Shown here piece by piece: positions 3,186-31,072 of a stretch of DNA of 64,000 bases. The position numbers were made by a program, and so were the translations under genes. The stretch lies in NCBI GenBank assembly GCA_964364425.1, contig CAYIMB010000002.1:17436-81435 (forward strand), read 5' to 3'. The notes under the pieces were generated by a model. That model was given only the letters and a program-made list of their open reading frames with translations, did not search any database and was not told where the DNA came from. Every line of letters begins with the position of its first letter. The first letter of the stretch is position 1. The DNA is from an uncultured Gammaproteobacteria bacterium (GTDB lineage: Bacteria; Patescibacteriota; Patescibacteriia; UBA9570; JBBTWU01).

Positions 3186-3268
3186 AGAAGGGCGACGGAA
3201 GCAGGGTCCGCGAGGCAGGGTGATTGAAGCTCCCGAACGAGCGGGCCCTGCTGAGTCGCCCTTTTGGT
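3186..3268 (+). ncRNA. Candidate structured RNA/structured repeat, copy A (homologous to 30992-31072)
   Basis: About 85% identical to copy B. Nested stems with compensatory substitutions between copies. Central loop GAAGCAGGGTGATTGAAGCTCCCG is identical in both. Confidence 0.4.
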
Positions 3269-3333
3269 TTCCATTAGTGAAAGTCGACAAAAAATGCTAT
3301 ACTCAAGGGCATAAGATCATTTATCCACAGCCT

Positions 3334-3732
3334 ATGAAAAAAGTCCTTGCTTTGGTGTCTGGTTGGGCGTTTGCTGCGTTTGCCCCAGTGGCAGCGTTAG
3401 CGCAAACAACCTCAGATTATAATTATAACTATGATTATAATTATAATTCCGGTGTGTCAGATGCCGCCGCCGCTGGCCTAGGAATTGGCCTCTTAATCTT
3501 CTGGGGCATCTTCATGATTATTGGCTTAGCCTTCTTGATCCTGTGGATCATGATGTTGGTTGATGCCATTAAACGCCAATGGCCAGAACGGACCACTTGG
3601 TTGATCATTTTGATCATCAGCTTCTTCCTGGGTTTGCACTGGTTGGCTGCTATCCTGTATTACTTCTTGGTCAAAAAGAAGAATGTGGGAACCAAATCTG
3701 GTGCCGCCGCTCCTATGGCTCCAGCAAAATAG
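3334..3732 (+). CDS. Small secreted/membrane protein (signal peptide, DYNYNYDYNYN repeat, 2-3 TM helices)
   Basis: ATG 3334 preferred over the 3220 start, which overlaps element A. Hydrophobic segments visible. Inserted between rpsG and fusA. Confidence 0.5.
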   Translation: MKKVLALVSGWAFAAFAPVAALAQTTSDYNYNYDYNYNSGVSDAAAAGLGIGLLIFWGIFMIIGLAFLILWIMMLVDAIKRQWPERTTWLIILIISFFLGLHWLAAILYYFLVKKKNVGTKSGAAAPMAPAK

Positions 3733-3864
3733 GTCGATTTTTTACAGACCACAAACACCCGGCCCCATGCCGGGTGTTTGCTTTTGTCTCATTTTGTCTA
3801 AAATGAAGAACCGACCGGAACTGCCTACAGGCAAGTCACGGTCGGTCCTCAGGGTGCAGGGGAA

Positions 3865-4404
3865 TCAGCCCCAGGGACCATTCCCGGGCTCCCAGTCGCA
3901 GGCCCGCTCCAGCCAGTTCTGGTTGTCCGGGTGGTGCCCAATCACTCCCTCCGCGGTGTGCAGCGGGGGCGGGATTTCCACACTGAGCTGCTCCGGCAGC
4001 TCGCGGTAGGCCTGGATCAGGGCGAGCCCCTGGCGCAGCTTGCCGGTCAACTCCATGGCCAGCCCCTGGCGGTAGTGGTACTGCCAGCTCGGCAAGTCCG
4101 GCATCTCTGACACCCTCCCGGACAGCTGGTCCAGGATGGTGTGGAAGCCGGCTTCCACCCGCTGGTCCTGGCAGGAGGTGCTCCCGCGGCCGTGCGTGAA
4201 GCACTCGTTGACCAGGTGCACTGAGATCTGGTGCAGGTCCACCAGGTCCAGCTCGTTGAGCATGCTGTCCACCCGCTGGGCCAGGTGGAACAGTCCGTGG
4301 GCCGCTGAGGCCCGTACTTGCATCATGTGCATCAGAACTCCTTGCCGCTTGGGAAAATAGCGGTCTAGTGCCCCTGTTTTACGCCCAATGGTATAAAAAG
4401 TCAA
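3865..4404 (-). CDS. Hypothetical protein, GC-rich foreign-looking gene (paralog of 4474-4935)
   Basis: 179-aa ORF with a TTG start directly after TAAATCGATTTA. GC-rich codon usage. Shares the W..H..L.GK...ALI.AYRELP.E block with the downstream gene. Confidence 0.5.
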   Translation of the reverse strand: MTFYTIGRKTGALDRYFPKRQGVLMHMMQVRASAAHGLFHLAQRVDSMLNELDLVDLHQISVHLVNECFTHGRGSTSCQDQRVEAGFHTILDQLSGRVSEMPDLPSWQYHYRQGLAMELTGKLRQGLALIQAYRELPEQLSVEIPPPLHTAEGVIGHHPDNQNWLERACDWEPGNGPWG

Positions 4405-4406
4405 TG

Positions 4407-4416
4407 TAAATCGATT
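4407..4416. repeat. AAATCGATTT palindrome (TAAATCGATTTA), 2 nt upstream of the minus-strand TTG start
   Basis: Exact 10-bp palindrome. Confidence 0.9.
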
Positions 4417-4424
4417 TACTCTTT

Positions 4425-4469
4425 TAAAAAAGAAGCGGCCGCTGGTCCCGAAAAGTGGAAACAGCGGCC
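4425..4469 (-). terminator. Rho-independent terminator for minus gene 4474-4935 (GGCCGCTG...CAGCGGCC + T-run)
   Basis: 8-bp inverted repeat followed on the minus strand by CTTCTTTTTT. Confidence 0.5.
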
Positions 4470-4473
4470 AACC

Positions 4474-4935
4474 TCAATGTGCGAAGGGGTCTACTGGGGC
4501 GGGGTGGAAGCCACCTCGCTGGCCTTGGCCGGGGGTTGCCATGAGGGGCCGCGGAGGACGCTTGCGCTCGGGCTCCGTTGGCAGCTCGCGGTAGGCCATG
4601 ATCAGGGCCTTGGCCTCCTTGACCTTGCCCTGGAGCTGCTCGAACTTGGCCACCCGGTGCATGCGCTCCCAGATCGCCAGGGTGGTGAATCCGGAGGAGT
4701 CCAGGTGACACTCGGTGAGCAGATGCTCCAGGCGGTTGACCTTGCTCTCCAGCGTGCCCAGCACAGACGAATCCTGCTGGAGCTGGAAGGCCAGGCTGAC
4801 CAGCTCACTGGCGAGCTGGGTGATGCCGTCCATCTCCTGCTCCCAGTTGGACAGAATGACGGTGTTGTTGACCTGCTGCAGCACCCCGGACAGAGCCAGG
4901 GCCGCGGTGAGCTTGATGTGGATGAGGCGTGCCAA
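4474..4935 (-). CDS. Hypothetical protein, GC-rich (paralog of 3865-4404)
   Basis: 153-aa ORF. GC-rich. Homologous C-terminal block to the neighbouring gene. Confidence 0.5.
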   Translation of the reverse strand: MARLIHIKLTAALALSGVLQQVNNTVILSNWEQEMDGITQLASELVSLAFQLQQDSSVLGTLESKVNRLEHLLTECHLDSSGFTTLAIWERMHRVAKFEQLQGKVKEAKALIMAYRELPTEPERKRPPRPLMATPGQGQRGGFHPAPVDPFAH

Positions 4936-4998
4936 ATGAAAACCCTCCTTATGGGCTTGCCTGTTCTACAGATTTTTTTTCGTTTCGTCAACCAGCTC

Positions 4999-5027
4999 TT
5001 GACGAACACCCTCATTTATCATATGTT
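4999..5027 (+). promoter_or_regulatory. Putative promoter TTGACG-17-TATGTT upstream of fusA
   Basis: Spacing and hexamers match the recurring promoter pattern in this window. The AAATCGATTT palindrome lies between the -10 and the fusA ATG. Confidence 0.4.
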
Positions 5028-5037
5028 CTAGGCCTGC

Positions 5038-5047
5038 AAATCGATTT
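5038..5047. repeat. AAATCGATTT palindrome, 13 nt upstream of the fusA ATG
   Basis: Exact 10-bp palindrome. Confidence 0.9.
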
Positions 5048-5059
5048 TTAATTTTTGTT

Positions 5060-7135
5060 ATGCCTCGAAAATATCCACTAGAAAAAACTCGCAACATTGG
5101 AATCATTGCGCATATTGATGCTGGGAAGACCACGGTATCTGAACGCGTGTTGTTTTACACCGGAAAAACCCACAAAATTGGTGAGGTGCATGAAGGTGAA
5201 GCCACTATGGATTGGATGGAACAAGAGCAAGAACGCGGGATTACCATCACTTCAGCGGCTACCACCTGTTTCTGGAAAGACTGCATGATCAACATCATTG
5301 ATACTCCAGGGCACGTGGATTTCACGGTGGAGGTGGAGCGGTCTTTGCGCGTGCTGGATGGTGGTGTGGTTATTTTTGATGGTGTGGCTGGGGTGGAACC
5401 TCAATCTGAAACAGTCTGGCACCAAGCGGATAAATACAACGTGCCTCGTATTTGTTTCATCAACAAAATGGATCGCACGGGTGCTGATTTTTACAAAGAC
5501 TTAGGCATGATTCATGACCGGTTGACCAAGAACGCACATCCCATTCAGTTACCAATTGGTGCTGAGGATAAATTTGAGGGGATGATTGACCTGCTCACAC
5601 GGAAAGCTTTCTACTACCGGGATGACATGGGTCAACAAGTGGAGGAGTTGGACGTGCCGGCTGACATGCAGGAGAAGGTAGAAAAGTACCGCGGACAGTT
5701 GATTGAAGCCATAGTAGAGCAAGATGAGAAAATGATGGAAGCGTACCTTGGTGGAACAGAGCCGAGTTTAGAAGAACTCAAGACAACGCTTCGTGCCGCG
5801 GTGGTGCAATTCAAAATCATTCCAGTCATGTGTGGTTCAGCTTTGAAGAACAAGGGCGTACAAAAAATGCTGGATGCTGTGGTGGATTACTTACCATCTC
5901 CGGTGGACACCCCAGCTATTGTAGGAACTGATCCAAACGACCCAGAGAAGAAAGTTGAACGTCATGCCAGTGATGAAGAACCAGTAGCCGCCTTGGCTTT
6001 CAAAGTAGCTTCTGACCCTTTTGTGGGTAAATTGACCTTCATCCGTGTGTACTCCGGTGTGTTGCAATCTGGTTCTTATGTGATGAACACCACCTCTGGT
6101 AAAAAGGAACGTATTTCCCGCTTGGTGAAATTACATGCCAACCACCGTGAAGATATTAGCGAGATCAGAGCAGGGGATATTGGCGCGGCGGTGGGTTTGA
6201 AAGAAACCAGGACTGGTGACACCTTGTGTGATGAAACCAACCCAGTGCAATTGGAAAACATTGTATTCCCAGAACCAGTTATTTCTATTGCTATTGAACC
6301 AAAGACCAAAGCTGACCAGGAAAAAATGGGTATTGCTTTGTCTAAACTATCTGAAGAAGACCCAACCTTCCGCGTACAATCTAACGAAGAAACTGGCCAG
6401 ACCTTAATCAGTGGTATGGGTGAGTTGCACCTGGAAATTATTGTGGACCGTATGAAACGTGAATTCTCTGTGGGCGCTAACGTGGGCGCTCCGCAAGTGG
6501 CGTATAAAGAAACCATTTCTCAACACGCTGAAGCTCAAGGAAAATATATCAAACAATCAGGTGGACGTGGTCAGTATGGAGACGCGTGGGTCAAGGTGGA
6601 TCCAAATCCAGGTAAGGGCTTTGAGTTTGTGGATGATGTGGTGGGCGGGGCTATCCCACGTGAATATATTCAGCCAGTGGGCAAAGGAGCCAAAGAAGCC
6701 CTGCTCAATGGTGTCTTGGCTGGCTACCCCATGGTAGATGTGATGGTGACGGTGTTTGATGGTTCTTACCATGAGGTTGACTCGTCTGAAGCGGCTTTCA
6801 AAGTAGCTGGTTCCATGGCTACTCAAGAAGCTTGTCGTAAAGCCAAGCCAGTGATTCTGGAACCGTTGATGAAAGTGGAAGTGATCACCCCAGAACAATT
6901 CATGGGTGATGTGATTGGTGACTTGAACTCCAAACGTGGACAAATTCAAGAGATGACTGACCGGGTGCAAATGAAAGTGGTGCGCGCAGAAGTGCCCTTG
7001 TCAGAAATGTTTGGCTACTCTACTTCACTCCGTTCCATGACCCAAGGCCGCGCTTCTTATTCCATGGAATTCCAAAAGTATGCCCCCGTGCCAAACAATG
7101 TAGCTACGCAGATTATAGAAGGCAAAAAGAAGTAA
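5060..7135 (+). CDS. fusA: Elongation factor G
   Basis: [17 protein letters not shown] and full-length EF-G homology (691 aa). Confidence 0.95.
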
Positions 7136-7140
7136 GGTCG

Positions 7141-7217
7141 ATTTTCACGCGCTCTGGAATGGCTCGGGACTCGCTTGCTCCGCGCTGACGCTTGTGCGCC
7201 TCGAGTCCCTGCGCCAC
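7141..7217. other. GC-rich extended imperfect inverted repeat (GCGCTCTGG...CCAGAGCGC, nested CTCGGGACTCG/CGAGTCCC) immediately after fusA
   Basis: Read directly: 9-bp perfect outer stem plus inner stems. Preceded by GTCGATTTTCAC. Confidence 0.5.
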
Positions 7218-7293
7218 CAGAGCGCTTCAATTACTCTCCTCCGCCATCTTCCGGCGCCTTTTGGTTATTTCAAACCAGTGCTAACATGCAGAC

Positions 7294-8160
7294 ATGAAAT
7301 TACGTTCAGAAGCACGCCGAACGTTCCAGAAATCAGCCGATGTTTTGCTTCCTCATGAAGAGTTGCAACCGCGGATTTTTGATCCGCGTTTAGATTTACC
7401 GGCCGGAGAATATGCAAAATTTCGTGACACTGTTAAACGAGACACCTCTTTTAAGGGACCTAAGAGATTTAAAATTCCCCATGTAGCTTGGATCAGTTGG
7501 TTTGACCCGTCTTATAGAGACGACTTGCGCGGTGTTGATAAATACAAAGAACAGCAGGTATCTGAACTGTTTATAAAAGCTAATCAAGTTCATGGCTTTG
7601 ACTCACAAATGAGAGTGTTAGAATTGAACCTTCAACTTGCCAGAGTGTTGCAACAATTTCCAGAGACTAGAAAAGAATTAAAAGAACTAACAGAAGTTTC
7701 ACGCTTAGAATATGTAATGGAATGGATTCGTGATGGCGTAGATCCACAAATGATTGTGAATTGGATTCAGATTTGGCCTGAACACAGGGCAAGAATTATG
7801 CAAGCAGCCTTTCCTAAAGGGTTGGAGGGTTTCTTGAAACAAGAAGAACAGAATTTATTTGACCCACCTAGCAATCAAGTCAATTATGCAGCCGACTTAA
7901 GTTTGCTTTTTCCAGAATCAAAAGCTTTTTTATTACAGCTGATCAAAGACGCACTCCCAAGAGAGCGAGCGAGACTAAGAGAATTGTCAAAAAGTATTAG
8001 TCCGGATGATTTTAAAACCTACCACCGTTTGATTGGAGACCTTACAATACTAGGTGCTGAGCAGGCTACCATTGATCAACACGGTCTGATTCAGGTTGAG
8101 CTACAACCTCTGCACAAACTCAGTGTCGTGCCACCATTACCGGACAGATCAACGTTATAA
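7294..8160 (+). CDS. Hypothetical protein, fourth member of the paralog family (C-terminal PPLPDRSTL)
   Basis: 288 aa. N-terminus MKLRSEARR.. and C-terminal region align with the 236 and 1107 genes. Stop lies inside TTATAAATCGATTTT. Confidence 0.6.
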   Translation: MKLRSEARRTFQKSADVLLPHEELQPRIFDPRLDLPAGEYAKFRDTVKRDTSFKGPKRFKIPHVAWISWFDPSYRDDLRGVDKYKEQQVSELFIKANQVHGFDSQMRVLELNLQLARVLQQFPETRKELKELTEVSRLEYVMEWIRDGVDPQMIVNWIQIWPEHRARIMQAAFPKGLEGFLKQEEQNLFDPPSNQVNYAADLSLLFPESKAFLLQLIKDALPRERARLRELSKSISPDDFKTYHRLIGDLTILGAEQATIDQHGLIQVELQPLHKLSVVPPLPDRSTL

Positions 8161-8168
8161 ATCGATTT
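8159..8168. repeat. AAATCGATTT palindrome between convergent genes
   Basis: Exact 10-bp palindrome. Confidence 0.9.
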
Positions 8169-8172
8169 TATT

Positions 8173-8463
8173 TCAAAATAACGGAACCGTTTGCGGGTGT
8201 TCTATTTTATTGATATGAGCATGTACTTCATTAAACCCAACGGCCACAATGCGGGCGAAATCTTCAACGCTTGTTTCAATGCGATGGTCCGTCCAATCGC
8301 GCATTGTATTGAACTCTTCTTTCACCCAAACCCTATCCTGCCGGCGGCCTTCAATAATAAATTCGCGTATTTCAGCGAAGTGTTTATTAGTAATAGACTG
8401 CTCGCCAGCTAGGCGCTGGTCAAGCAAGTCCATGAACCACTGTTTGTCTTCTTGCGTTAGCAT
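8173..8463 (-). CDS. Hypothetical protein (96 aa)
   Basis: ORF with the conserved TTGACT-16-TATGAT promoter 6 nt upstream of the ATG on the minus strand. Confidence 0.45.
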   Translation of the reverse strand: MLTQEDKQWFMDLLDQRLAGEQSITNKHFAEIREFIIEGRRQDRVWVKEEFNTMRDWTDHRIETSVEDFARIVAVGFNEVHAHINKIEHPQTVPLF

Positions 8464-8469
8464 GGATCA

Positions 8470-8498
8470 ATCATAGATCGCGGATTTGACCAGTCAAG
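8470..8498 (-). promoter_or_regulatory. Conserved promoter cassette TTGACT-16-TATGAT (copy 1), near-leaderless
   Basis: 26 of 29 nt identical to 63133-63161. -10 box ends 6 nt before the ATG. Confidence 0.5.
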
Positions 8499-8528
8499 TG
8501 GTATGTAGCGCCGTCTGTGGAAAAGTCT

Positions 8529-8601
8529 ATCTACTCACAGAATCAAATCGATTTTTACGGGATTTGATGCTCTGAGCAGAGGAGGATGGTTGGCGGTTCC
8601 A
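8529..8601 (+). repeat. Direct repeat R1 (73 nt; contains AAATCGATTT and an ATCAAATC/GATTTGAT hairpin)
   Basis: Matches 9387-9460 with one substitution and a 1-nt T indel. Confidence 0.85.
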
Positions 8602-8620
8602 TGAAAGTCAAGACCTAAAA

Positions 8621-8667
8621 ACAAAAAAATGGCTAACTTTAGCCATAAAAAACTGTGCGTACGCACA
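8621..8667 (-). terminator. Tandem hairpins downstream of the minus two-gene cassette: ATGGCTAAAGTTAGCCAT + T-run and CTGTGCGTACGCACAG
   Basis: Perfect 18-bp and 16-bp palindromes. T-run on the minus strand. Confidence 0.5.
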
Positions 8668-8682
8668 GATTTTTGTCTGAGA

Positions 8683-9000
8683 TTACACGCCTCGTTCTAG
8701 AGCCACCAATTTGGCAAATGGTTGTAAGAGTTGCCTCAGTTGACTGAGTGATACCCCGTATTCGCTTGTGTTTTGGCTCAAATCTGCAATCACTTCGTAC
8801 AACCGTCGCAGTTCTTTGCGTTGTTTTGCCGGTGCTCCACCAAAGGCGGAGAAACTGGCCAACTCCAACGCTCTAAATAGGCAGCTCTGGGCATGCTGTT
8901 GATCATTTTTTGCTTGCAAAGATTCCGCCCGCGCTAACTCACTCTCAATGTTCATGAGTTGTGTGGCCAAAGAAAACGTAGCCCAACGTTCAGCCGTCAT
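8683..9000 (-). CDS. Hypothetical helical protein (105 aa), second gene of the cassette
   Basis: ORF overlapping the upstream gene by ATGA (8997-9000). Confidence 0.45.
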   Translation of the reverse strand: MTAERWATFSLATQLMNIESELARAESLQAKNDQQHAQSCLFRALELASFSAFGGAPAKQRKELRRLYEVIADLSQNTSEYGVSLSQLRQLLQPFAKLVALERGV

Positions 9001-9344
9001 AACGCCAGCCGCTCAGTAATCACGGCCGCTACTTGCTGTTGAATAGCCGGATTTTGAATCAAGGTTTGTGTATTGCCTTGTTTGGGCCTGATGTTGATCA
9101 AAGACGTAAATTCCACCTGCTCTCCTTGAGGCCGCCCCGGAAAAATATTTGCTCCCCAGACATTTTTTTGTTTTGAACCTGAATCTAACAACACTGCCTC
9201 CGCATCTGCATGCAACTCACCACCAATGGCCAGAATTTTTTTATCAATATCCACTACCACCTTGACCATATCGCCGAAGGTGTCTTGAGCTAAGGCCAGA
9301 ACTTGTTCTTTTGGAAGTTTGTCGGTAACGATTTGAATTTCCAT
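8997..9344 (-). CDS. Hypothetical protein (115 aa; resembles conserved DUF-type small proteins, ...DMVKVVVDIDKKILAIGGELHADAE...)
   Basis: ORF. DUF-type family assignment is from memory only. Confidence 0.45.
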   Translation of the reverse strand: MEIQIVTDKLPKEQVLALAQDTFGDMVKVVVDIDKKILAIGGELHADAEAVLLDSGSKQKNVWGANIFPGRPQGEQVEFTSLINIRPKQGNTQTLIQNPAIQQQVAAVITERLAL

Positions 9345-9364
9345 GATTCCACTCTAGCAAAAAA

Positions 9365-9378
9365 GTGTGCACGTGCAC
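9365..9378. promoter_or_regulatory. TGTGCACGTGCACA palindrome upstream of the minus two-gene cassette
   Basis: Perfect palindrome. Related to CTGTGC-N4-GCACAG at 8652 and 49511. Confidence 0.4.
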
Positions 9379-9386
9379 AGGTGTAG

Positions 9387-9460
9387 TTCTACTCACAGAA
9401 TCAAATCGATTTTTACGGGATTTGATGCTCTGAGCAGAGGAGGATGGTTGGCGGTCCCAT
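9387..9460 (+). repeat. Direct repeat R2 (74 nt)
   Basis: See R1. Confidence 0.85.
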
Positions 9461-9476
9461 CACTCCCCGGAAGGTA

Positions 9477-10229
9477 CTACCGAACGGCCGTCCAGACCCC
9501 CATGTCGTCGCCGAAGGGCACGGCCAGGCCCACGTAGATCCGGCACGTGTCGCCGGAGCCGCTGCTGCTGGTCTTCTCGTAGAGGGTGACCGTGTGGTCG
9601 TCCGACGTGACGGTGAAGCCGCCGCAGTCGTCCGACCAGTTGGCGCCGGAAGACCACTCGGCCTGGATGTCCACCCACGAGTGGTCGCTCAGGTCCGTGG
9701 TGGACGGGCTGAACATCAGGGTGTCCGTGGACGCGGACACGCTGGCCGACGCGGAGCCGCCGGACCCGTACCAGGCCCAGATGGTGGCGGGGTAGGTGAG
9801 GCCGCCGCTTGCGTCGCGGGTGACCACAATCCTGAGGACCGTGGTAGCGCTGTCGCCCGTGTCCACGACCGCGGTGTCGGTCACGGAGGTGTCCGCGGTG
9901 TCGCCGGTGCCGTCGCAGTCGGTGTCCACGCCGTCGGTCGGATCCTCGGTCGCGCCGGGGTTCACCGTGGCGTCGCGGTCCGCGCAGTCGCCGCCGAACG
10001 GGGAGTACCCGCGGGGGCGCCGGGTGGCCCAGAGGTCGGAGCCGGGCGCGCCGTAGCCGTCGCGGTCGCCGTCCCACCAGTAGTGGGTGATGACGATCCG
10101 GCTGGTACGGGACAGCGCGGTGTTGCGGACTTCCATGGTCTCGGCGCGGTCGTTGGCGGGGGCCTTGGTCTCTACGACCGGGGCGGTGGAGCGGTCACAG
10201 GCCGCCAGAATCAGAAGCAGGGACGACAT
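9477..10229 (-). CDS. GC-rich lipoprotein with Asp-rich MopE-like putative metal-binding repeats
   Basis: Signal peptide plus lipobox LAAC. Motif DCADRD..VNPGATE..DG.DTDCDG. Foreign-looking GC-rich codon usage. Confidence 0.6.
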   Translation of the reverse strand: MSSLLLILAACDRSTAPVVETKAPANDRAETMEVRNTALSRTSRIVITHYWWDGDRDGYGAPGSDLWATRRPRGYSPFGGDCADRDATVNPGATEDPTDGVDTDCDGTGDTADTSVTDTAVVDTGDSATTVLRIVVTRDASGGLTYPATIWAWYGSGGSASASVSASTDTLMFSPSTTDLSDHSWVDIQAEWSSGANWSDDCGGFTVTSDDHTVTLYEKTSSSGSGDTCRIYVGLAVPFGDDMGVWTAVR

Positions 10230-10463
10230 GGGGTTCTCCCGGAGAATGAGTTTGGCCCTGAAGATGGCACCGAACTCAAGTGAAGGTCATTTCAAGCTGC
10301 GGTTGGCGTTTCTTAGGTACGTGTGAAACCTCCCCAAAAGCACTCAACACCCTTAGGGCAGGGCCAGCAAAAATACATGACAATCGAACCCTTGTCAATA
10401 ATGGGCCTTAATGCCAAAAACACTCAAAATTGGCTTGTCCTAAGGAAATCCACCCCAGTAGAC

Positions 10464-10491
10464 TTTACAAACTAAAAAATGTTGTTATAAT
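10464..10491 (+). promoter_or_regulatory. Putative tuf promoter TTTACA-16-TATAAT
   Basis: Hexamers read directly, about 60 nt upstream of the tuf ATG. Confidence 0.45.
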
Positions 10492-10550
10492 CAGCTTTGT
10501 GTTTCGAGATAATCGAAATTATTTTTACTTAATTCCTAAAGGGAACCTCA

Positions 10551-11741: not shown

Positions 11742-11757
11742 CATAAGAACACTATAG

Positions 11758-11796
11758 CTTCGCCCCCGGTAGGGCAGAGAAAACCCGGGGGCGAAG
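11758..11796 (+). terminator. 12-bp GC hairpin after tuf (CTTCGCCCCCGG...CCGGGGGCGAAG), weak U-tract
   Basis: Perfect inverted repeat read from sequence. Confidence 0.4.
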
Positions 11797-11812
11797 TAGC
11801 ACTTTCAACACC

Positions 11813-12172: not shown

Positions 12173-12307
12173 TCTCCGTCTACTTCAGTCTGGTCCGGGA
12201 CCGGTGGTGCGGATCTAAGGGCTCTCAGCCCAAGGAAATCACCCACATGCCCAAAGCCAGAAAGGACAAATAATTACATATAAACCCAAACCATACCCCA
12301 AAAATAG

Positions 12308-12359
12308 CGGTGATCTACGTATATCAAACCATTGGCGTATGTAGACCACCGTTTTTCTT
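12308..12359 (+). terminator. Attenuator-like hairpin + GTTTTTCTTT, 10 nt upstream of rplC
   Basis: 13-bp stem with one mismatch followed by a T-run, in the 196-nt rpsJ-rplC spacer. Confidence 0.35.
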
Positions 12360-12368
12360 TACACCACT

Positions 12369-12986: not shown

Positions 12987-12990
12987 ACTT

Positions 12991-22551: not shown

Positions 22552-22554
22552 TCC

Positions 22555-23205: not shown

Positions 23206-23244
23206 GACTTCCCAGAATCTAACCCCTTTGGTATTGTAAAATCC

Positions 23245-23991: not shown

Positions 23992-23993
23992 CT

Positions 23994-24404
23994 ATGAAAA
24001 TATTAGCCATTGATTACGGTGAACAACGCTTAGGGTTAGCTGTCAGTGATGATAACCACACCATGGCCATGTCTAAAGGACTGCTGGAGGGCTTAAGTCA
24101 AACTAAGATCATTCAGAAAATTAAAGCCATAGTGAATTTGGAAAAAGTAGGCTTGCTTGTGGTGGGATTGCCCATTGGTATGGATAACCAGCCCACAGCT
24201 TGGACAGAAGAGGTCAAACGGTTTGCTGAAAAACTCCGTAGTCATCTAACTATTCCGGTCCAAATGGTGGATGAACGTCTGACTACCCAAATGGCCAAGA
24301 CGCTGCTGGCTGGTACGGGACAGACGAAACAAAAGAAAGACCAAGTGGCCGCACAGATTTTTTTGCAAGATTACTTGGATCAACAACGCAACGCTAAGAC
24401 ATAA
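23994..24404 (+). CDS. ruvX: Holliday junction resolvase-like RuvX/YqgF
   Basis: MKILAIDYGEQRLGLAVSD N-terminus. Confidence 0.8.
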   Translation: MKILAIDYGEQRLGLAVSDDNHTMAMSKGLLEGLSQTKIIQKIKAIVNLEKVGLLVVGLPIGMDNQPTAWTEEVKRFAEKLRSHLTIPVQMVDERLTTQMAKTLLAGTGQTKQKKDQVAAQIFLQDYLDQQRNAKT

Positions 24405-24406
24405 TT

Positions 24407-25507
24407 ATGAGCACGGCCTTTGTCTGGTTCCCACAACTGGCCGTTCTGACTCTGATCAGCTCAGCTGTATTGAGTTGGGCTTTGGCCGGACTGATTCGCC
24501 GTCTGGCCTTACGTCAGGGCTTTGTTGACCATCCAGAAGCAGCTCCTCAGCGCAAAGTTCACACCGCGCCGGTGCCGCTACTTGGCGGGTTAGCGCTGTT
24601 TGGCGGGTTTGCCCTGACCAGTGTATTTTTGTGGAATGTGTTAACCGCTGGGTACTTATTGCCCAAGCATTTACTCGGATTATTGTTGGCTGGAGCAGTC
24701 TTGATGATTGGCGGAGCTTGGGATGATATCAAAAACTTAAAACCGTCTCGGCAAATTTTGTTCCCTCTGCTCGCTTGTGTAATTGTAGTCGCTTCGGGGG
24801 TCGATATTCACGAGATCACCAACCCATTTGGGGATACTCTTTCACTGGAGACCATTTCCTGGATCATCTTTACTTGGCAGGACATCCCCTACCGTTTGGT
24901 CCTGTGGGCTGACCTGTTTGGTATCCTGTGGCTGCTTGCCACCACTTATGCCACCAAGTTTTTAGATGGCTTAGACGGCTTAGTTGCCGGCGTCACCGCC
25001 ATTGGAGCCAGTGCCATAGCTGTGTTGTCTTACCGGGCACCGGTTCTTCAACCGGAGACTGCTTTAGTCGCACTGTGTTTAGCTGGGGCAGCTGTAGGAT
25101 TTTTAATCTGGAACCGTCATCCGGCCAAAATATTTTTAGGCGAAAGTGGCAGTTTATTTTGCGGTTTTGCTCTGGGAGTTCTGGCCATTATCTCTGGAGG
25201 GAAAATAGCCATTGCTTTACTGGTGTTGGGTGTCCCACTGCTTGACGCGGCCTGGGTGATTTTTAAACGTCTCCGGTCCGGACACTCCCCGTTTGTAGGG
25301 GATAGTGAACACCTGCATCAACGTTTATTTAAACTGGGACTGACCCAACGCCAAGTGGCTTGGATACTCTACCTAGTTACTGCTGGTTTTGGATATGTGG
25401 GGTTATTTTTACAGGGCAAAGAAAAAGTTTGGGCTTTGGCAGTGCTTCTGCTTGTCCTCTTGCTGTTAGGTTGGATTGCTTTCAGATGGCAGCAAAAAAA
25501 AGTATGA
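24407..25507 (+). CDS. Glycosyltransferase family 4 polyprenyl-phosphate sugar-1-phosphate transferase (MraY/WecA-like)
   Basis: Multi-TM protein. GAWDD..NL motif. 366 aa. Confidence 0.6.
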   Translation: MSTAFVWFPQLAVLTLISSAVLSWALAGLIRRLALRQGFVDHPEAAPQRKVHTAPVPLLGGLALFGGFALTSVFLWNVLTAGYLLPKHLLGLLLAGAVLMIGGAWDDIKNLKPSRQILFPLLACVIVVASGVDIHEITNPFGDTLSLETISWIIFTWQDIPYRLVLWADLFGILWLLATTYATKFLDGLDGLVAGVTAIGASAIAVLSYRAPVLQPETALVALCLAGAAVGFLIWNRHPAKIFLGESGSLFCGFALGVLAIISGGKIAIALLVLGVPLLDAAWVIFKRLRSGHSPFVGDSEHLHQRLFKLGLTQRQVAWILYLVTAGFGYVGLFLQGKEKVWALAVLLLVLLLLGWIAFRWQQKKV

Positions 25508-25992
25508 AATGGCTGAAGCAGATTTCAGCCTGGCAGGTCGTTTTGGCGGCCAGCATGACGCTGGCGGTTGCCGCCACTATTTTTTTTTCAGCGCTGTGGG
25601 GGCCAGTAGATTTTGAGACGGGAACCATCACGTTTCCGGACGGATCAGTGGTGCCGGTTGAGGTGGCGGATAGTCCGGCTGAACAACGTCAGGGGTTGAT
25701 GAACCGTGAGCACATGGACCCGGAGAGCGGAATGTTGTTTGTGTTTTCAACCCCGGGCATATATGTATTTTGGATGAAGAATACGCAAGTAGATTTAGAT
25801 TTTATTTGGCTGTCTCAGGGCCGGGTGGTGGATCTCAGAATTCAAGTTCCGGCTGGCGCGGGGCTGCCCAGTGACCAGATTGCCCGCATTCAACCGTCAG
25901 TCACTGTGGATGCCGTGTTAGAAGTGCCCGCAGGCTTTGTAGACAGGCACCAGATTCAAATGGGCGACCAACTGGTCTACCATCTGCCCTAA
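25504..25992 (+). CDS. DUF192-family protein (secreted)
   Basis: ATG 25504 overlaps the previous stop. VFWMKNT..DLDFIW motif. Confidence 0.55.
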   Translation: MKWLKQISAWQVVLAASMTLAVAATIFFSALWGPVDFETGTITFPDGSVVPVEVADSPAEQRQGLMNREHMDPESGMLFVFSTPGIYVFWMKNTQVDLDFIWLSQGRVVDLRIQVPAGAGLPSDQIARIQPSVTVDAVLEVPAGFVDRHQIQMGDQLVYHLP

Positions 25993-26010
25993 ATGTGCTA
26001 TTCTGCAAGC

Positions 26011-26441
26011 ATGAAACGACTGGCGAGTGCCTTTTCCCTTGGCTCGTTTGTCCTGGCGGGTTGTACCCCCAGCAGTTTTGTCTCGGTTCAAAGTCCAGAA
26101 GCGGAATGGGTGTTGCAAACTCCTGACCTTTCCGCTACATTCTGGGAAGACCAGGGGAGCTGACGTTAAACGGGGGAGGTGCTGCGCCGTTGCAAATCGT
26201 TTTAGACACGCCAAACGGAGATTTGAATCTCATGCAGTCAGGGGGAGGCAACAGCTACGTGTCTACTATTCCGAACCAATTTTTAGGAATCCAATTTGAT
26301 CCAGTGGCCCAAGCAACCGTAGTGTTTTCTGGCACGGCCCAAACTTGGGGCCTGTTTCAAACTTCCATGTTTGGCCATCTGATGATGCAGGGGAGTAACG
26401 GTTGCGGTCTGTCTGTCCCGTTTACCTTAACTCATGTGTAG
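26011..26441 (+). pseudogene. Lipoprotein gene interrupted by an apparent -1 frameshift at a G-run (~26154-26162)
   Basis: Frame 1 (MKRLASAFSLGSFVLAGC..WEDQGS*) stops at 26161-63. Frame 0 continues ..GELTLNGGG.. through 26441. Confidence 0.4.
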
Positions 26442-26488
26442 CCCAAAAGCTTGACGAAAACAGCCTATTCTTTTAAGCTTCGGCCACT

Positions 26489-26797
26489 ATGATTGCTATT
26501 ATAAAAACCGGCGGGAAGCAGTATCTCGTCAAACCAAACCAGACCATCCAGATTGAAAAGATCCCGGGTAAAGAAGGGGAGGCTGTTGAATTTGAAGCGT
26601 TGTTGGTGGCAGAAGATGACGGGAAATCTGTAGAGATTGGCGCCCCCAGCGTGAAGGGAAAGAAGGTCAAAGGCAAAATCACTTCTCAGGGATTAGCTAA
26701 AAAAGTAGACGTGATCAAGTTCAAATCTAAAATTCGATATTCACGTAAATACGGACACCGTCAACCATTTACCAATGTTCTGATTGAATCCATTTAA
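26489..26797 (+). CDS. rplU: 50S ribosomal protein L21
   Basis: L21 homology. Confidence 0.9.
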   Translation: MIAIIKTGGKQYLVKPNQTIQIEKIPGKEGEAVEFEALLVAEDDGKSVEIGAPSVKGKKVKGKITSQGLAKKVDVIKFKSKIRYSRKYGHRQPFTNVLIESI

Positions 26798-26851
26798 GGT
26801 TCGGGGTGGTGGTCGACCACCATCCCTCACCTTCATTGTTTAACAAATCAA

Positions 26852-26878
26852 AACACCGGCCAAGCGCCGGTGTTTTTG
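26852..26878. terminator. Bidirectional rho-independent terminator (AACACCGGC-CAAGC-GCCGGTGTT + T-run) between rplU and recR
   Basis: 9-bp perfect stem. T-run on plus, A-run on the other side. Confidence 0.7.
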
Positions 26879-26893
26879 TGTCTCGGGAATAAA

Positions 26894-27496
26894 TTATTTT
26901 ATGTTGGTCCGGCCTTTGAGGGCGTTACTTAAGGTGACACTGTCCGCATACTCCACATCTCCACCCATGGGTAGTCCGCGGGCTATGCGAGTGATATGTA
27001 TTGGTACGCTACTCAAGGCTTGGGTGATAATCATGGCGGTGGTTTCACCCTCAACATCAGGATTAGTAGCCAAGATGACTTCTTTGACCACTCCGTCACT
27101 TGCTCTACGCACTAATTCTTCAATCCTTAATTCACTTGGTCCCACACCTTCAATCTGGTTCACTACGCCACCTAAGACGTGGTACAAGCCACTGTATTCA
27201 CCAGTTTGTTCTATAGCCCAAACCTCCGGCGCTTCAGCTGCCACACAAACCAAAGCCTGATCACGTCTAGGGTCAGAACAAATTCCGCACACGGCCGACT
27301 CACTAAAGTTATAACAACGGGAACACACCTGTACGGTATCCCTCAGTTGGCTGAAGCCTTGCATAAATTCAGTCATGATCTCTTTGGGTTGTTTGAGTAG
27401 CCAAAACACAAATCGTTCGCTGGTTTTGGTTCCAATTCCAGGTAAGCGATTAAATTGTTCCACCATCTGCTGTAAGCTGGCTGGGAATTTGGCCAT
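26894..27496 (-). CDS. recR: Recombination protein RecR
   Basis: C4 zinc finger plus Toprim homology. Confidence 0.9.
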   Translation of the reverse strand: MAKFPASLQQMVEQFNRLPGIGTKTSERFVFWLLKQPKEIMTEFMQGFSQLRDTVQVCSRCYNFSESAVCGICSDPRRDQALVCVAAEAPEVWAIEQTGEYSGLYHVLGGVVNQIEGVGPSELRIEELVRRASDGVVKEVILATNPDVEGETTAMIITQALSSVPIHITRIARGLPMGGDVEYADSVTLSNALKGRTNIK

Positions 27497-27504
27497 ACGC
27501 GAGG

Positions 27505-27810
27505 TTATTTTTTGCCCGGAAAATCCGGAACTTGAATTTCACCCTTTTGGATTTTTTGGGCCACTGATCTCTGCACTTTTTTCACACCTTCGCCCACTGC
27601 TTCTTTGATGGATTCTTCCAACTTTTGCTTGTTCTCCGGTTTCAAAACGTCCGCCTTTATATCCAAGGCCATAACGGCTTGGTTGCCGTCCATAATCATG
27701 GACACGTTCCCGCCCCAGGTTTCCACGTGGAAGGTTTCCGCGGATAGTTGTGTTTGCAGCTTTTTTGCTGAATCCCGCAAATCTTTGTACTGTTTGAGTT
27801 TTTGAAACAT
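27505..27810 (-). CDS. ybaB: Nucleoid-associated protein YbaB/EbfC
   Basis: Homology. Conserved recR neighbourhood. Confidence 0.8.
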   Translation of the reverse strand: MFQKLKQYKDLRDSAKKLQTQLSAETFHVETWGGNVSMIMDGNQAVMALDIKADVLKPENKQKLEESIKEAVGEGVKKVQRSVAQKIQKGEIQVPDFPGKK

Positions 27811-27871
27811 AACATTAATAAAGGATTACCCACTCACCTTACTCAAGTCGGACCGTTTTTGCAAATCCGAC

Positions 27872-29263
27872 TTACCCCTGACCCATCCCTGCGCTGGCAA
27901 AGGCCGGCGGAGGTAGAATACTAGAGTGTTTTTTATCCAAGTTGCGGAAGGAGGCCTTTTCAATATCAAAAAACATTTCCACTTGCCCGGTTGGACCGTT
28001 TCTGTGTTTGGCAATCAGAATATCTGAAATACCTTTACGCTCAGAATCTTTTTTATAGTACTCCTCACGGTAAATGAATAGAACTAAGTCAGAATCTTGC
28101 TCAATGCTGCCACTTTCGCGTAAGTGACTCAAACGCGGAATGGGAGGTTGTTGCATTTCCACCGCGCGGGAGAGCTGAGACAGGGCTAAGACCGGAATGT
28201 TCAACTCACGAGCCAAGCCTTTGAGCGAACGGGAGATCTCAGAAATTTCCTGCACCCGGTTGTCTGAGTTAGAAGAACGTCCTTCCATTAATTGCAAGTA
28301 GTCTAGAATCAAGAGACTCAAGCCGTGCTCCATCTGTAAACGCCGCGCCTTGGTCCTGATTTCCATAATGTTGGCGGACGGAGAGTCATCAATATAAATA
28401 GGTGCTTCAGCCAGTTGCCCCATGGCGTGACCAATACTGGTGAAGTCATGGTCGTTGGTGAGTTTCCCTGTGCGCATTTTCCATAAGTCTACATTGGCTT
28501 CTGCGCAGAGCAGACGGTCAACCAATTGATCTTTAGACATTTCTAAGCTGATAATGCCCACCGGATGTTTACTTTTGACCGCTACGTTACGGGCAATATC
28601 CAGAGCTAAGGACGTTTTACCCATGGAAGGACGTGCAGCCAAAATGATCAAATCTGATTTTTGTAATCCCCCTAGCTTATTATCCAAATCAGTGAAGCCA
28701 GTTGGAATGCCGCGCAGCTTGCCAGACTCCCGGTGCAATTCGTCTATGCGGTCAAAGGCCGCAGTCATAATGTCCTGCACTGGAACAAAGTTTTGTTTTA
28801 AGTAGGTGTGTGACACGGAGTACAGAGCTTTCTCTGCCCGGTCTAAACTGGTGGTTAAATCTTCATCCTCGTTATAGCCCTCGCGCACAATATCTTGTCC
28901 CGCCACAATTAAGCGCCGTAAGGTAGATTTCTTTTTTACAATCTCCGCATAGGACACAATGTTAGACGCCGTAGGGACGGTGTTGGCTAAAGACACCAAA
29001 TATGACCGGCCGCCAATCTGATCCAGCTGTCCTTTTTCTATCAAGCGGTTGGCTAGGGAGAGAATATCGATTGGCTCATGCTGGGCATACAAATCTAATA
29101 CGGACTCAAAAATCAACTGATGCTTGTTGACATAAAAATCATCAGCCTTCACTACATCTGCAATTTTAATCAAAGCATCCTTGTTAATGAGTAAACTGCC
29201 CAAAGTAGCCTGCTCAGCTTCTATGTTATGTGGGGGAATAACGCCTTTCGGGAGGGTGTCCAT
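27872..29263 (-). CDS. dnaB: Replicative DNA helicase DnaB
   Basis: Walker A GKTSLAL and DnaB N-domain. Confidence 0.9.
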   Translation of the reverse strand: MDTLPKGVIPPHNIEAEQATLGSLLINKDALIKIADVVKADDFYVNKHQLIFESVLDLYAQHEPIDILSLANRLIEKGQLDQIGGRSYLVSLANTVPTASNIVSYAEIVKKKSTLRRLIVAGQDIVREGYNEDEDLTTSLDRAEKALYSVSHTYLKQNFVPVQDIMTAAFDRIDELHRESGKLRGIPTGFTDLDNKLGGLQKSDLIILAARPSMGKTSLALDIARNVAVKSKHPVGIISLEMSKDQLVDRLLCAEANVDLWKMRTGKLTNDHDFTSIGHAMGQLAEAPIYIDDSPSANIMEIRTKARRLQMEHGLSLLILDYLQLMEGRSSNSDNRVQEISEISRSLKGLARELNIPVLALSQLSRAVEMQQPPIPRLSHLRESGSIEQDSDLVLFIYREEYYKKDSERKGISDILIAKHRNGPTGQVEMFFDIEKASFRNLDKKHSSILPPPAFASAGMGQG

Positions 29264-29300
29264 AGTCCGAGTATTTTACGCTGCTCCGCTGAAATTTGAT

Positions 29301-29310
29301 ATATCGATTT
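29301..29310. repeat. AAATCGATAT variant of the palindrome on the minus strand, 35 nt upstream of the dnaB ATG
   Basis: Same 10-mer as at the paralog junctions. Confidence 0.6.
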
Positions 29311-29340
29311 GCCCACAGGTTTTCCACCCCGGCAAAGTGA

Positions 29341-29369
29341 TTGACAGTCCCACTTAAAATCGGTATGTT
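29341..29369 (+). promoter_or_regulatory. Putative promoter TTGACA-17-TATGTT for tRNA-Lys
   Basis: Consensus hexamers 26 nt upstream of the tRNA. Confidence 0.5.
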
Positions 29370-29395
29370 ATTTTCGTTTTCCACGCTACCTCAAC

Positions 29396-29468
29396 GGGGC
29401 GGTAGCTCAGTCGGTAGAGCAGCAGCCTTTTAAGCTGATGGTCACAGGTTCGATCCCTGTCCGCCCCA
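29396..29468 (+). tRNA. tRNA-Lys (anticodon TTT)
   Basis: Cloverleaf derived by hand. Anticodon loop CTTTTAA. GTTCGATCC T-loop. No encoded CCA. Confidence 0.8.
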
Positions 29469-29469
29469 C

Positions 29470-29787
29470 ATGCTGAGTCTTTCAAATGGTTTGCTTGGAC
29501 TTCACCTGTTAGGGGCTGCCATCAGCTTTGGTCTGGTGCTTGGTGCCGGAGTTGCCTTAGTGCGCAGAGCAACCCAGCAGTATTTGTTTTGGATCCGCTC
29601 CATTGCCTTGGCCGCTGTATATCAGATAGTCACTGGAGTGGGATTGGCTTTGCTCATGGCGTTCCAAACCTCTGTACTTTCTGTCTGCGTTAGGCTGGCG
29701 GTTTATCTGGTTATAGTCTGCGGCGTTGAAACAGTTTTGGTGTACCGTTTGAAAAAAACGGAAGTCATTATACGACCTCGTACGTAG
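29470..29787 (+). CDS. Small membrane protein (3-4 TM)
   Basis: Hydrophobic ORF. Confidence 0.4.
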   Translation: MLSLSNGLLGLHLLGAAISFGLVLGAGVALVRRATQQYLFWIRSIALAAVYQIVTGVGLALLMAFQTSVLSVCVRLAVYLVIVCGVETVLVYRLKKTEVIIRPRT

Positions 29788-29886
29788 ACGTCCGCACCTT
29801 AGCCCATTTAGACCAGGAAAGTAAAAAGTCCCAGGTAGATTAATTTACACCTTGAATCCGACCAAAACGCATGGTACAGTCCAGCT

Positions 29887-30687
29887 ATGCCAGAAGGGAG
29901 AGATCCGCAAACTCAGGATTTGAAAGCGAAGGCTTTGGCCGAAGGTGTTTTTTGTTTGGTGGAAGAGTTGACCAGAAAAATAGCCCGCAATAGAAACACG
30001 GTGGCCCAGGATGGGCTAAGACAACAAACTGCGTTCCATTTAGAAAAAGTCCGGAAATATGCAATTGGTCCGGAGCGGGAGAAACTCAGCCCTGGAACAG
30101 CACGCCGCTTAACCGGGGAATACATGATGCGGGCTAACCAGTTGGAGGAAGCGTTGCTTGAGGCCGCAGTAGAAGAGAGTCCGGTGACTGGCAAGCTAGC
30201 TACACTCAAAGAAGCCTTCATGCCCATACCACGGAATAAGTTAGTTGAGTTCCAGTCACGGGTGTCCAGGCAGTTATCCAGGTTGCACGGCATAGATGAA
30301 GCCAGGGGAGAGGTGACAGATCCTGCTTTGACTATATTTTTTTATGCTGCAGCCATGAAATACTTGTCCATACCAAACTTTAACGGAGATGAATGGTACG
30401 GTGAAGTGATGAGTCAACGTGCACCCTTGCTGCGTAAGTTGGCTTTGCCGTTGGTGGCGCATGACATGCTTGAGCGGGCCGCTCAAGAACGGGCACGACC
30501 TATGCCCAACTCGGAAGTATTGGACAGCCACCACCACCGAGCAGTCAACGCCTTAGCTGAGCTGATTGAAGTGTGGGGCAAAGACATGCCGGCTGTGGCG
30601 GATAAATATCAGGCGGTGAAAGACACTCTTGACCAAGCACTCAGGAGTCTGACAGAATACTATCGTCAAGAAACCAGACTTCATTAG
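29887..30687 (+). CDS. Hypothetical protein
   Basis: ORF with typical codon usage. Confidence 0.45.
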   Translation: MPEGRDPQTQDLKAKALAEGVFCLVEELTRKIARNRNTVAQDGLRQQTAFHLEKVRKYAIGPEREKLSPGTARRLTGEYMMRANQLEEALLEAAVEESPVTGKLATLKEAFMPIPRNKLVEFQSRVSRQLSRLHGIDEARGEVTDPALTIFFYAAAMKYLSIPNFNGDEWYGEVMSQRAPLLRKLALPLVAHDMLERAAQERARPMPNSEVLDSHHHRAVNALAELIEVWGKDMPAVADKYQAVKDTLDQALRSLTEYYRQETRLH

Positions 30688-30688
30688 T

Positions 30689-30976
30689 ATGCCAAAATTA
30701 AAATTACCAGCAGATAATCTAGAACTTGATGTGCCAGAGGGCACTAACTTCCGTGAAGCCGTGCAAAACGGCGGCGGAACTATTTTGTTTGGCTGCGAAC
30801 AAGGGGTGTGCGGAACGTGTGTAGTCACGGTTGAAGAGGGGATTACGAATATTACGGATAAAACGGAACAAGAGGAACAGACATTACAAGTATTTTCAGC
30901 TGAAGACAATCAACGCCTGACGTGCCAATGCGCCATGAAAGGCCCGGGAGATGTGAGTATTCGGCCGGCACGCTAG
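30689..30976 (+). CDS. 2Fe-2S ferredoxin-like protein
   Basis: C....C..C...C pattern (CEQGVCGTC ... CQC). Confidence 0.55.
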   Translation: MPKLKLPADNLELDVPEGTNFREAVQNGGGTILFGCEQGVCGTCVVTVEEGITNITDKTEQEEQTLQVFSAEDNQRLTCQCAMKGPGDVSIRPAR

Positions 30977-30991
30977 GTGACTGCGTGAAGA

Positions 30992-31072
30992 AAGAGTGAC
31001 GGAAGCGGGGTCTGCGAAGCAGGGTGATTGAAGCTCCCGTATGAGCAGACCCCCGCTGAGTCACTATTTGGT
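30992..31072 (+). ncRNA. Candidate structured RNA/structured repeat, copy B (homologous to 3186-3268)
   Basis: See copy A. Lies between the ferredoxin stop and the TTGCAA-16-TATGTT box (31076-31103). Confidence 0.4.

Follow-up and report, generated by a model that had tools for sequence, protein, structure and literature searches.

What is a GC-rich hairpin that stands in two similar copies behind unrelated genes of one genome, and what keeps its shape while its sequence changes? The question is raised by a 64,000-nucleotide (nt) stretch of contig CAYIMB010000002.1 (assembly GCA_964364425.1), which we call the window. One copy (A) follows rpsG, the gene for ribosomal protein S7, and precedes a gene for a small membrane protein; the other (B) follows a 2Fe-2S ferredoxin gene (Fer2) and precedes korA. 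An earlier note on this DNA had described the two as a structured element with compensatory base changes. It offered as explanations a small RNA, a cis-regulatory RNA or terminator-insulator, or a structured mobile repeat. With a probability that we put at roughly 55%, the element is a lineage-specific GC-rich imperfect palindrome of ~85 nt, one of a small duplicative (mobile) family of hairpins in a clade of Patescibacteria-like bacteria from groundwater, and likely acts as the terminator or insulator hairpin of the upstream gene. Positions and scores of the copies and their neighbors are collected in Table 1.

Copies A and B align over 84 columns, 66 of which are identical (79%); 16 are substitutions, 13 of these being transitions, and 2 are indel columns. 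Both copies adopt the same long, bulged hairpin. Read inward, the shared fold comprises an outer stem (GGGCGAC/GTCGCCC in copy A), a 3x2 purine internal loop (GGA/GA), a middle and inner stem of 12 bp, a tandem G-A loop and a short apical stem-loop. At its ends the element has G(C/T)G(A/G)C ... G(T/C)C(G/A)C. Between A and B, five base pairs differ on both sides and two more on one side with pairing preserved, and all 26 pairs are intact in each copy. When the same 16 substitutions were placed at random 200,000 times, at least five compensated pairs resulted with a frequency of 1e-5. RNA folding of both copies is far more stable than that of shuffled sequences, and the z-scores of all intact copies, in the window and in relatives, lie between -4.8 and -8.3. 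The resemblance and compensation of A and B are far beyond chance.

These results bear out the central claim of the earlier note, that two homologous structured copies of ~80 nt exist, through the alignment, the common bulged hairpin and a P of about 1e-5. All three compensated stems that it listed are correct, and two further compensated pairs can be added, a G-C to A-T change in the outer stem and another beside the apex. Its placement of both copies between an upstream stop codon and a downstream promoter-like box also holds, at rpsG and the membrane-protein gene as well as at Fer2 and korA. Two of its figures need correction. Identity had been given as ~85%, above the measured value, and an invariant center of 24 nt had been claimed where the exact run is 21 nt: copy A has GAGG at a point where copy B has GAAG, the G/A change being one half of a compensated pair.

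Relatives were reached through the neighboring proteins KorA and S7, whose close homologues are few and all in Logan assemblies (contigs carry L numbers below; runs SRR22388013, SRR22388050, SRR22388101, SRR22388335, SRR22387938, SRR22388048 and SRR22387757). Past these, identity falls to ~50% for KorA and ~71% for S7. The host is probably a poorly sampled, Patescibacteria-like lineage; we call it so because the next-best named homologues of both proteins are Kerfeldbacteria or Patescibacteria. Short contigs from Hainich groundwater (ENA ERZ1292636 and ERZ1292631) are identical to the window across copy A and belong to the same population. Divergence from the window at four-fold degenerate sites is 0.42-0.44 for L009 and L008 and ~0.6 for L011, L019 and L004.

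Across the four full copies, from the window and relatives, 12 of the 26 pairs have changed on both sides while 99% of cells remain paired, and none of 500 shuffles was as good. Sliding the partner strand as a control lowered pairing to 36-55%. The four-copy alignment was fitted to the model, which somewhat favors the pairing score. The inference that covariation implies selection on pairing, drawn in the earlier note from two copies, is strengthened by these figures. Compensation may also have a mutational source. Template-switch correction in quasi-palindromes is a mutational process that yields apparent compensation, and with so few copies this alternative is inseparable from selection.

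Conservation is unevenly spread along the hairpin. Between copies, the arms are 56-74% identical and the 29-nt apex 76-90%; divergence of the arms is near that of four-fold synonymous sites (0.42-0.60 between these genomes). All six intact or partial copies share, without change, ATTGAAGCTC (part of the 21-nt core), a 3' TGAG, and the GCGA and GAGC that make up the tandem G-A motif. Covariation turns the GGG/CCC of the apical stem into GAG/CTC, and the purine loops CGGAAG/CTGAG and GCGA./.GAGC, which are not Watson-Crick paired, are conserved. The outer internal loop (5'-C GGA AG / 5'-CU GA G) can be compared with a kink-turn: the non-bulged strand fits, with GA beside the stem, and the bulged strand would have a bulge of only 1 nt before GA, against 3 nt in the canonical motif. 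We treat this likeness, read from the sequence, as a resemblance only.

Comparison of filled and empty korA sites shows copy B to be a gain, relative to related genomes, of ~90 nt, homologous to the element of the rpsG locus and lying between the stop codon and a pre-existing T-rich spacer. The site is filled in the window and in L019 (KorA 88% identical), where the contig starts within the loop and the korA gene call runs 21 residues into the element. It is empty in L004, L005, L006 and L007 (KorA 91, 78, 76 and 71% identical), where the Fer2-korA gap is an element-free 38-52 nt, the korA promoter (TTTGCAAATCG ... TGTGGTATGGT) is conserved, and the covariance model found no element over 61 kb of these contigs. 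Judged by KorA identity, the partner of the window is the element-free L004, and L019 falls outside that pair; therefore the distribution at this site needs either one gain and one loss or two gains.

A and B resemble each other more in their arms than B resembles its L019 counterpart at the korA locus. Copy B and that counterpart have the apex and inner stem in common, and over the middle and outer 3' arms they can hardly be aligned at all. Copies that are more alike within a genome than at the same locus between genomes are typical of a repeat family, resulting from recent copying or gene conversion.

At the rpsG locus, where the element is old, the contigs of relatives show that copies occur in both orientations and can decay. 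The element is on the plus strand in the window (S7 100%) and in L011 (S7 89%; 60-78 bits), and on the minus strand in L009 (S7 97%; 80-99 bits) and L008 (S7 97%), the latter contig ending in the loop. L020-22 (S7 90%) carry a decayed copy of the minus type, in which the loop TTGAA and the inner stem are lost and a perfect 21-bp outer stem is left. The element is absent from L010, L023 and L024 (S7 86-88%). S7 identities group the window with L009 and L008, L011 with L020, and L010 with L023; orientation thus varies inside both element-bearing groups. The flanks of plus and minus copies are collinear. Sample identities suggest that L008 and L004 are one genome with the rpsG copy only, and that L010 with L007, and L023 with L005, are each one genome with neither copy.

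Two of the Logan contigs stop inside the element with 30 nt of apex each, L008 at its end (10519-10546) and L019 at its start (1-30). If Logan assemblies use k=31, as we assume, 30 nt equals k-1, and such contig ends hint at other copies in those genomes with a shared core of at least 31 nt. Poor sequencing coverage over a strong hairpin is an equally simple cause.

A third copy, C, lies after fusA, which encodes elongation factor G. It reads GCGCC-GGAAG-AUGGCGG-AGGAGAGUAAUUGAAGCGCUCU...GAG-GCGC and keeps GCGCC-GGAAG, GGAGAGTAATTGAAGC, the outer stem GCGCC/GGCGC, the GGAAG/GAG loop and 16 nt of the apex. The middle stem is gone, and the copy overlaps another long hairpin at 7149-7225. By score it is the weakest of the three, and these retained parts make a convincing case that it is a relic of the element.

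Every intact copy is found shortly past a stop codon, with a T-run immediately behind it and the next gene's promoter downstream. Copy A has the rpsG stop (3157) on one side and the membrane-protein gene's extended -10 (3295-3303; ATG at 3334) on the other; copy B lies likewise between the Fer2 stop (30976) and the korA promoter (ATG at 31112). Copy A has the layout of an intrinsic terminator, with a GC-rich hairpin and a T-run on the sense strand after the stop. In gene sense, the hairpin is followed by T6 in L009, where the element is inverted, and by T5 in L011, where it is nested within an extra stem, CAGCGCC/GGCGCTG. L010 has a plain terminator, CCCCATGAACGTGGGG with T6, exactly at the site where its relatives have the element, and the element-free korA sites have (G)ATTTT. 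Because T-runs are present at element-free sites and after the inverted L009 element, the T-run appears to belong to the locus and not to the element.

From this arrangement we propose that the element supplies or replaces the hairpin of an oversized intrinsic terminator or insulator. With a nearly palindromic hairpin and a T-run that is part of the locus, termination would be expected in either orientation. Spread of the element, along with conservation of its apex, may involve a trans-acting factor that recognizes the folded single strand; ectopic gene conversion or recombination would be another route. Of the explanations first offered, terminator-insulator agrees with the order of stop, hairpin and T-run and with the plain terminator at the L010 site. 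Structured mobile repeat agrees with the korA-site gain, with the filled and empty sites and with the three loci in the window. A cis-regulatory RNA receives no support from an element that lies upstream of conserved promoters, is absent before korA in four relatives and occurs in both orientations at the rpsG locus; a riboswitch or leader of korA or of the membrane-protein gene was likewise rejected, the element being upstream of the promoters, dispensable and free in orientation. A stand-alone small RNA also lacks support, given the lack of a promoter, the flips of orientation and the decayed copy, but keeps a small probability. The earlier note had held that a lack of further copies anywhere would count against it; more copies are found at the rpsG and korA loci of relatives, along with the relic after fusA.

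Several observations weigh against a mobile terminator hairpin. A typical terminator has a stem of ~5-14 bp and a loop of 3-8 nt, and the element, with ~26 bp in three segments and a 29-nt apical region, is larger on both counts. A simple terminator scan flags neither copy A nor copy B, the loop and bulges being outside its rules, and the T-run of copy B (TATTTGGTAATTT) is weak. The same scan does flag 3752-3780, one of the ordinary small terminators that this genome also uses. The conserved apex with its G-A motifs exceeds what termination needs. Unlike those of a classical MITE (a miniature transposable element with inverted repeats), the termini and outer arms are the most variable part, and neither a target-site duplication nor a direct repeat is seen at copy B when filled and empty korA sites are compared. 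Copies are few: three in the window, and no more in ~110 kb of syntenic DNA of relatives outside these loci. The exact 21-mer core has no match in GTDB representative genomes, a 17-mer core has none in IMG/VR, and blastn found no match in phage and plasmid collections. Pfam scans of the unannotated and some of the housekeeping open reading frames (ORFs) of the window detected no transposase, integrase/recombinase, HUH or reverse-transcriptase domain.

The apex is the main unexplained feature. It is conserved, yet the flips of orientation and the decay in L020 argue against a role in the flanking mRNAs. Tentatively, and with odds well short of even, the apical module (two tandem G-A loops, the invariant AUUGAAGCUC loop and a covarying stem) could be the site of a structure-specific protein, making the element a hairpin-borne unit, mobile or invertible, of a new type, or else a terminator that carries a new protein-binding RNA module. 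The apex rather than the termini would then be under selection, and the element would target terminator positions and flip in place.

The copies might instead be ordinary intrinsic terminators bound to their loci, of unusual hairpin length and changing by compensatory substitution, with nothing mobile about them. The likeness of A, B and C would then derive from a few segmental copying or gene-conversion events, and the flips from in-place inversion mediated by the hairpin. This account is in keeping with the position and the T-runs, with the collinear flanks of plus and minus copies at the rpsG locus, and with the fact that neither a mobilizing enzyme nor a target-site duplication was found. 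It also has precedents, since compensatory terminator evolution is documented in Bacillus cereus (PMC5381666) and recurrent palindrome-linked inversions in plastid spacers (PMC2903610). We nonetheless judge it unlikely. The ~90-nt gain at korA is homologous to a distant locus and arose where relatives are hairpin-free, therefore some copying mechanism is required. Termination is no explanation for an apex and two purine loops that are kept while synonymous sites are near saturation, and a 26-bp stem with a 29-nt apex is unlike the plain terminators of this genome, such as that at 3752-3780.

A functional structured RNA would put the apex and G-A motifs to use as a recognition surface, whether in a protein-binding module of 3' untranslated regions, in a small RNA derived from 3' ends, or at a site of processing by RNase III or another enzyme. 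It is hard to reconcile with elements that, in close relatives, take opposite orientations to the only evident direction of transcription. No element-sense promoter was found by eye, the apex is deleted in L020-22 though the outer hairpin persists, presence is patchy beside unrelated genes, and Rfam gives no match even at E up to 10. We therefore consider an RNA function rather improbable, even with strong covariation, conserved purine loops and an unvarying ATTGAAGCTC loop among species whose synonymous sites are saturated, and an element-sense strand that folds 4-12 kcal/mol better than its complement in every intact copy, all speaking for it. Both strands fold well as single-stranded DNA, arm pairing is kept in both orientations, and conservation is independent of orientation. 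These properties would suit a site at the DNA level, a folded single strand or cruciform read by a chromosomal DNA enzyme (replication/primosome, recombination, restriction-modification or partition) without regard to the direction of transcription. Such a site is very unlikely, as no associated enzyme gene was found, several relatives do without the element, the apex lacks the palindromic form of many binding sites in double-stranded DNA, and no positive evidence points to it. A duplicative hairpin that serves as terminator or insulator of the upstream gene remains our preferred reading.

Database searches gave the element no established name. With Rfam 15, the whole window returned two tRNAs and no other family at the gathering threshold. 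Around copies A, B and that of L009, matches at E up to 10 were generic ones to microRNA precursors with long hairpins, at 13-22 bits against thresholds of 50-100. The degenerate apex GANGNANNNTRATTGAAGCTNNNGNANGA matched seven times in the genome collection, against ~8 matches expected by chance (a hand estimate), in scattered taxa and with no match that scores with the model; IMG/VR returned none. A match to the 21-mer in JGI metagenomes (L001) was dismissed as chance, being in a coding region, without flanking stems and without similarity to the window; at the sensitivity used, these metagenomes too gave no homologue. The string GGAAGCAG recalls domain IV of 4.5S RNA, but no model of signal recognition particle RNA gives a score even with E as high as 10, and neither L009 nor L011 keeps the string. 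Resemblances to the hammerhead, the hairpin ribozyme and box C/D (CUGA, GUGAUUGA) were rejected because the element has no branched junction, misfitting box sequences and no Rfam score. A promoter inside the apex, with TTGAAG as -35, was set aside because no -10 occurs at the correct spacing. The loop is complementary, with one mismatch, to the T-loop of each of the two tRNAs of the window.

Table 1. The three copies in the window, with the adjoining genes and signals
Feature	Position	Strand	Remarks
Copy A, intact hairpin element	3186-3268	+	Covariance model R1, 107.5 bits; RNA fold -53.1 kcal/mol, z -6.4
Copy B, intact hairpin element	30990-31073	+	Covariance model R1, 106.6 bits; RNA fold -38.0 kcal/mol, z -4.8
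Copy C, degenerate or remodelled	7196-7257	-	Covariance model R2, 13.9 bits; E 0.0017 within 221 nt, 0.5 over whole window
21-nt core GCAGGGTGATTGAAGCTCCCG, exact in copies A and B	3215-3235 and 31019-31039	+	2 matches in window, 0 expected
rpsG (S7), 3' end carries copy A	2693-3157	+	Pfam Ribosomal_S7
2Fe-2S ferredoxin gene (Fer2), 3' end carries copy B	30689-30976	+	
fusA (elongation factor G), 3' end carries copy C	5060-7135	+	
Promoter of small membrane-protein gene, GTGAAAGTCGA at -35 position and extended -10 TGCTATACT	3277-3303	+	Kept in relatives
korA promoter, TTGCAA-16 nt-TGGTATGTT	31076-31103	+	Conserved in relatives with and without element
T-run TTTTGGTTT, directly 3' of copy A hairpin	3262-3270	+	Hairpin ends 3261-3265
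Weaker T-run TATTTGGTAATTT, after copy B	31065-31077	+	
Post-stop motif TCGATTTTCAC, 5' of copy A	3166-3176	+	Same motif at 7138-7148, 5' of copy C

The motif that precedes copies A and C recurs elsewhere. In the form TCGATTTT(Y)AC, with the palindromic core AATCGATT, it has 18 matches in the window at up to one mismatch, against 2.8 expected. Sites are at 1978, 3166, 3734, 7138 and 8162 on the plus strand, also at 5041, 8548, 9406 and 50691, and inverted at 3277-3287. Nine of the 13 exact plus-strand occurrences of TCGATTTT are intergenic, in a window that is 11% intergenic, and five of these nine follow a plus-strand gene, 1-8 nt past its stop codon. In reverse form (GAAAATCGA) the motif is found 8-10 nt 5' of the extended -10 of two promoters, those of the membrane-protein gene and korA, in the window and in relatives. 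At korA, only 8-9 nt separate the -10 hexamer from the ATG, and a Shine-Dalgarno sequence is lacking (window 31098-31114); L004-L007 and L019 share this arrangement, which suggests that korA mRNA is leaderless or nearly so.

The surroundings of copies A and C have further peculiarities. The genes rpsG and fusA, normally contiguous, are separated by ~1.9 kb (3157-5060). The insert holds the small membrane-protein gene (3334-3732), which is conserved there in relatives, and two paralogous minus-strand ORFs (3865-4404 and 4474-4935) that share ALI.AYRELP and have no Pfam match. Gene ends also carry other unusually long, GC-rich hairpins whose sequence has no relation to that of the element, one after fusA (7149-7225) and one at 3806-3851. 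The latter lies between the convergent membrane-protein gene and the 3865-4404 gene, and has a counterpart in L009 (5302-5376). Farther downstream, a direct repeat of 73 nt (8530-8602 and 9388-9460) is 99% identical between its two occurrences, which are 858 nt apart. Each carries a hairpin, AATCAAATC...GATTTGAT, around the same ATCGAT motif, and together they flank two small minus-strand genes, an ORFan (8683-9000) and a DUF5674 gene (8997-9344).

Upstream of rpsL is a tandem array of 2-4 paralogous ORFans of ~290 residues that end in PLPDRPHV or PLPERPHV and belong to no Pfam family (window 72-1976; L009 333-2945; L011 2-3614; L023 13-2673), with a PIN-domain gene after it in relatives. At 60253-62769 the window encodes, among housekeeping genes, a protein of 838 residues with TrwB/TraG-type coupling-protein and HerA-like ATPase domains. 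DnaB of L005 (1016-3652) has 878 residues with an intein and a LAGLIDADG endonuclease domain, whereas DnaB of the window (27872-29263) has 463 residues and no intein.

Patescibacteria genomes are reduced, with few intergenic bases to spare, and are regarded as poor in mobile DNA. A handful of well-studied bacteria are known to have small palindromic repeats with a second role as terminators, and a limited literature search found no report of such a terminator-like repeat in Patescibacteria (candidate phyla radiation). The family illustrates how gene ends can be remodelled, with hairpins gained, inverted and lost at the same gaps between stop codon and promoter. A covariance model of the element would improve annotation, and the element itself disturbs short-read assembly and gene calling. 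If the apex is a protein-recognition site, it would point to a mobilizing or RNA-binding activity new to the lineage.

Among known systems, the closest behavioral analogue is the pneumococcal SPRITE, a terminator-like repeat near the 3' ends of coding sequences with ~30 copies per genome and no known transposase or target-site duplication (2011, PMC3049150). Both look like oversized terminators and lie at gene 3' ends, and each is restricted to a single species group. SPRITE, however, has a high AT content, an 18-bp stem and, within the repeat, an extended U-rich tract, and has no sequence similarity to the element. The latter is GC-rich, with ~26 bp in three segments, two purine loops and a conserved 29-nt apex, and its T-run is apparently that of the host locus. 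Next closest are the bcr1 repeats of the Bacillus cereus group, in which compensatory changes preserve the fold (Delihas 2011, PMC3184786), and repeats of the ERIC and Correia type, all dispersed intergenic palindromes with a distribution that is not conserved between close relatives. In these, terminal inverted repeats are recognizable and the target duplications are short (5 bp for bcr1), whereas the element has variable termini and no duplication was seen. With MITEs it shares presence/absence polymorphism at orthologous sites, those of korA and rpsG, and more than one dispersed copy; it differs from them in that conserved terminal inverted repeats, a target-site duplication, and an insertion sequence or transposase in the window were not found.

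Repetitive extragenic palindromic (REP) sequences are GC-rich palindromes located at the ends of genes, where they form hairpins and can terminate transcription or stabilize mRNA. In REP and REPIN families the stems are conserved and the loops vary, copies number from tens to hundreds, and there is a cognate gene for a mobilizing RAYT transposase (a Y1 HUH protein). The element has the reverse pattern, a conserved apex with varying arms, and the scanned ORFs of the window contain no RAYT-like or HUH domain. Integron attC sites are hairpins with unpaired bases at gene 3' ends, defined by structure and variable in sequence. The element lacks the RYYYAAC/GTTRRRY core sites, has an apex that is conserved and not variable, and lies in a window with no integrase or cassette array.

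Ordinary terminators switch between Watson-Crick pairs through G-U intermediates (Safina et al. 2017, PMC5381666). The element is like them in having a hairpin and T-run after the stop and in the prevalence of transitions between A and B (13 of 16 changes), and is set apart by its length, internal loops, conserved apex, duplication to other loci and flips of orientation. Plastid spacers such as trnH-psbA undergo, among close relatives, recurrent small inversions bounded by inverted repeats (PMC2903610). Those are events of organelle DNA that usually flip the loop only, whereas here a whole asymmetric hairpin is reversed. An inversion of this type could have produced both the plus and the minus state at rpsG, and independent re-insertion could equally well have done so. 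The element shares no sequence with SPRITE, bcr1 or the studied terminators and is distinguished from them by variable arms under a conserved apex; we class it with the small palindromic, terminator-like interspersed repeats.

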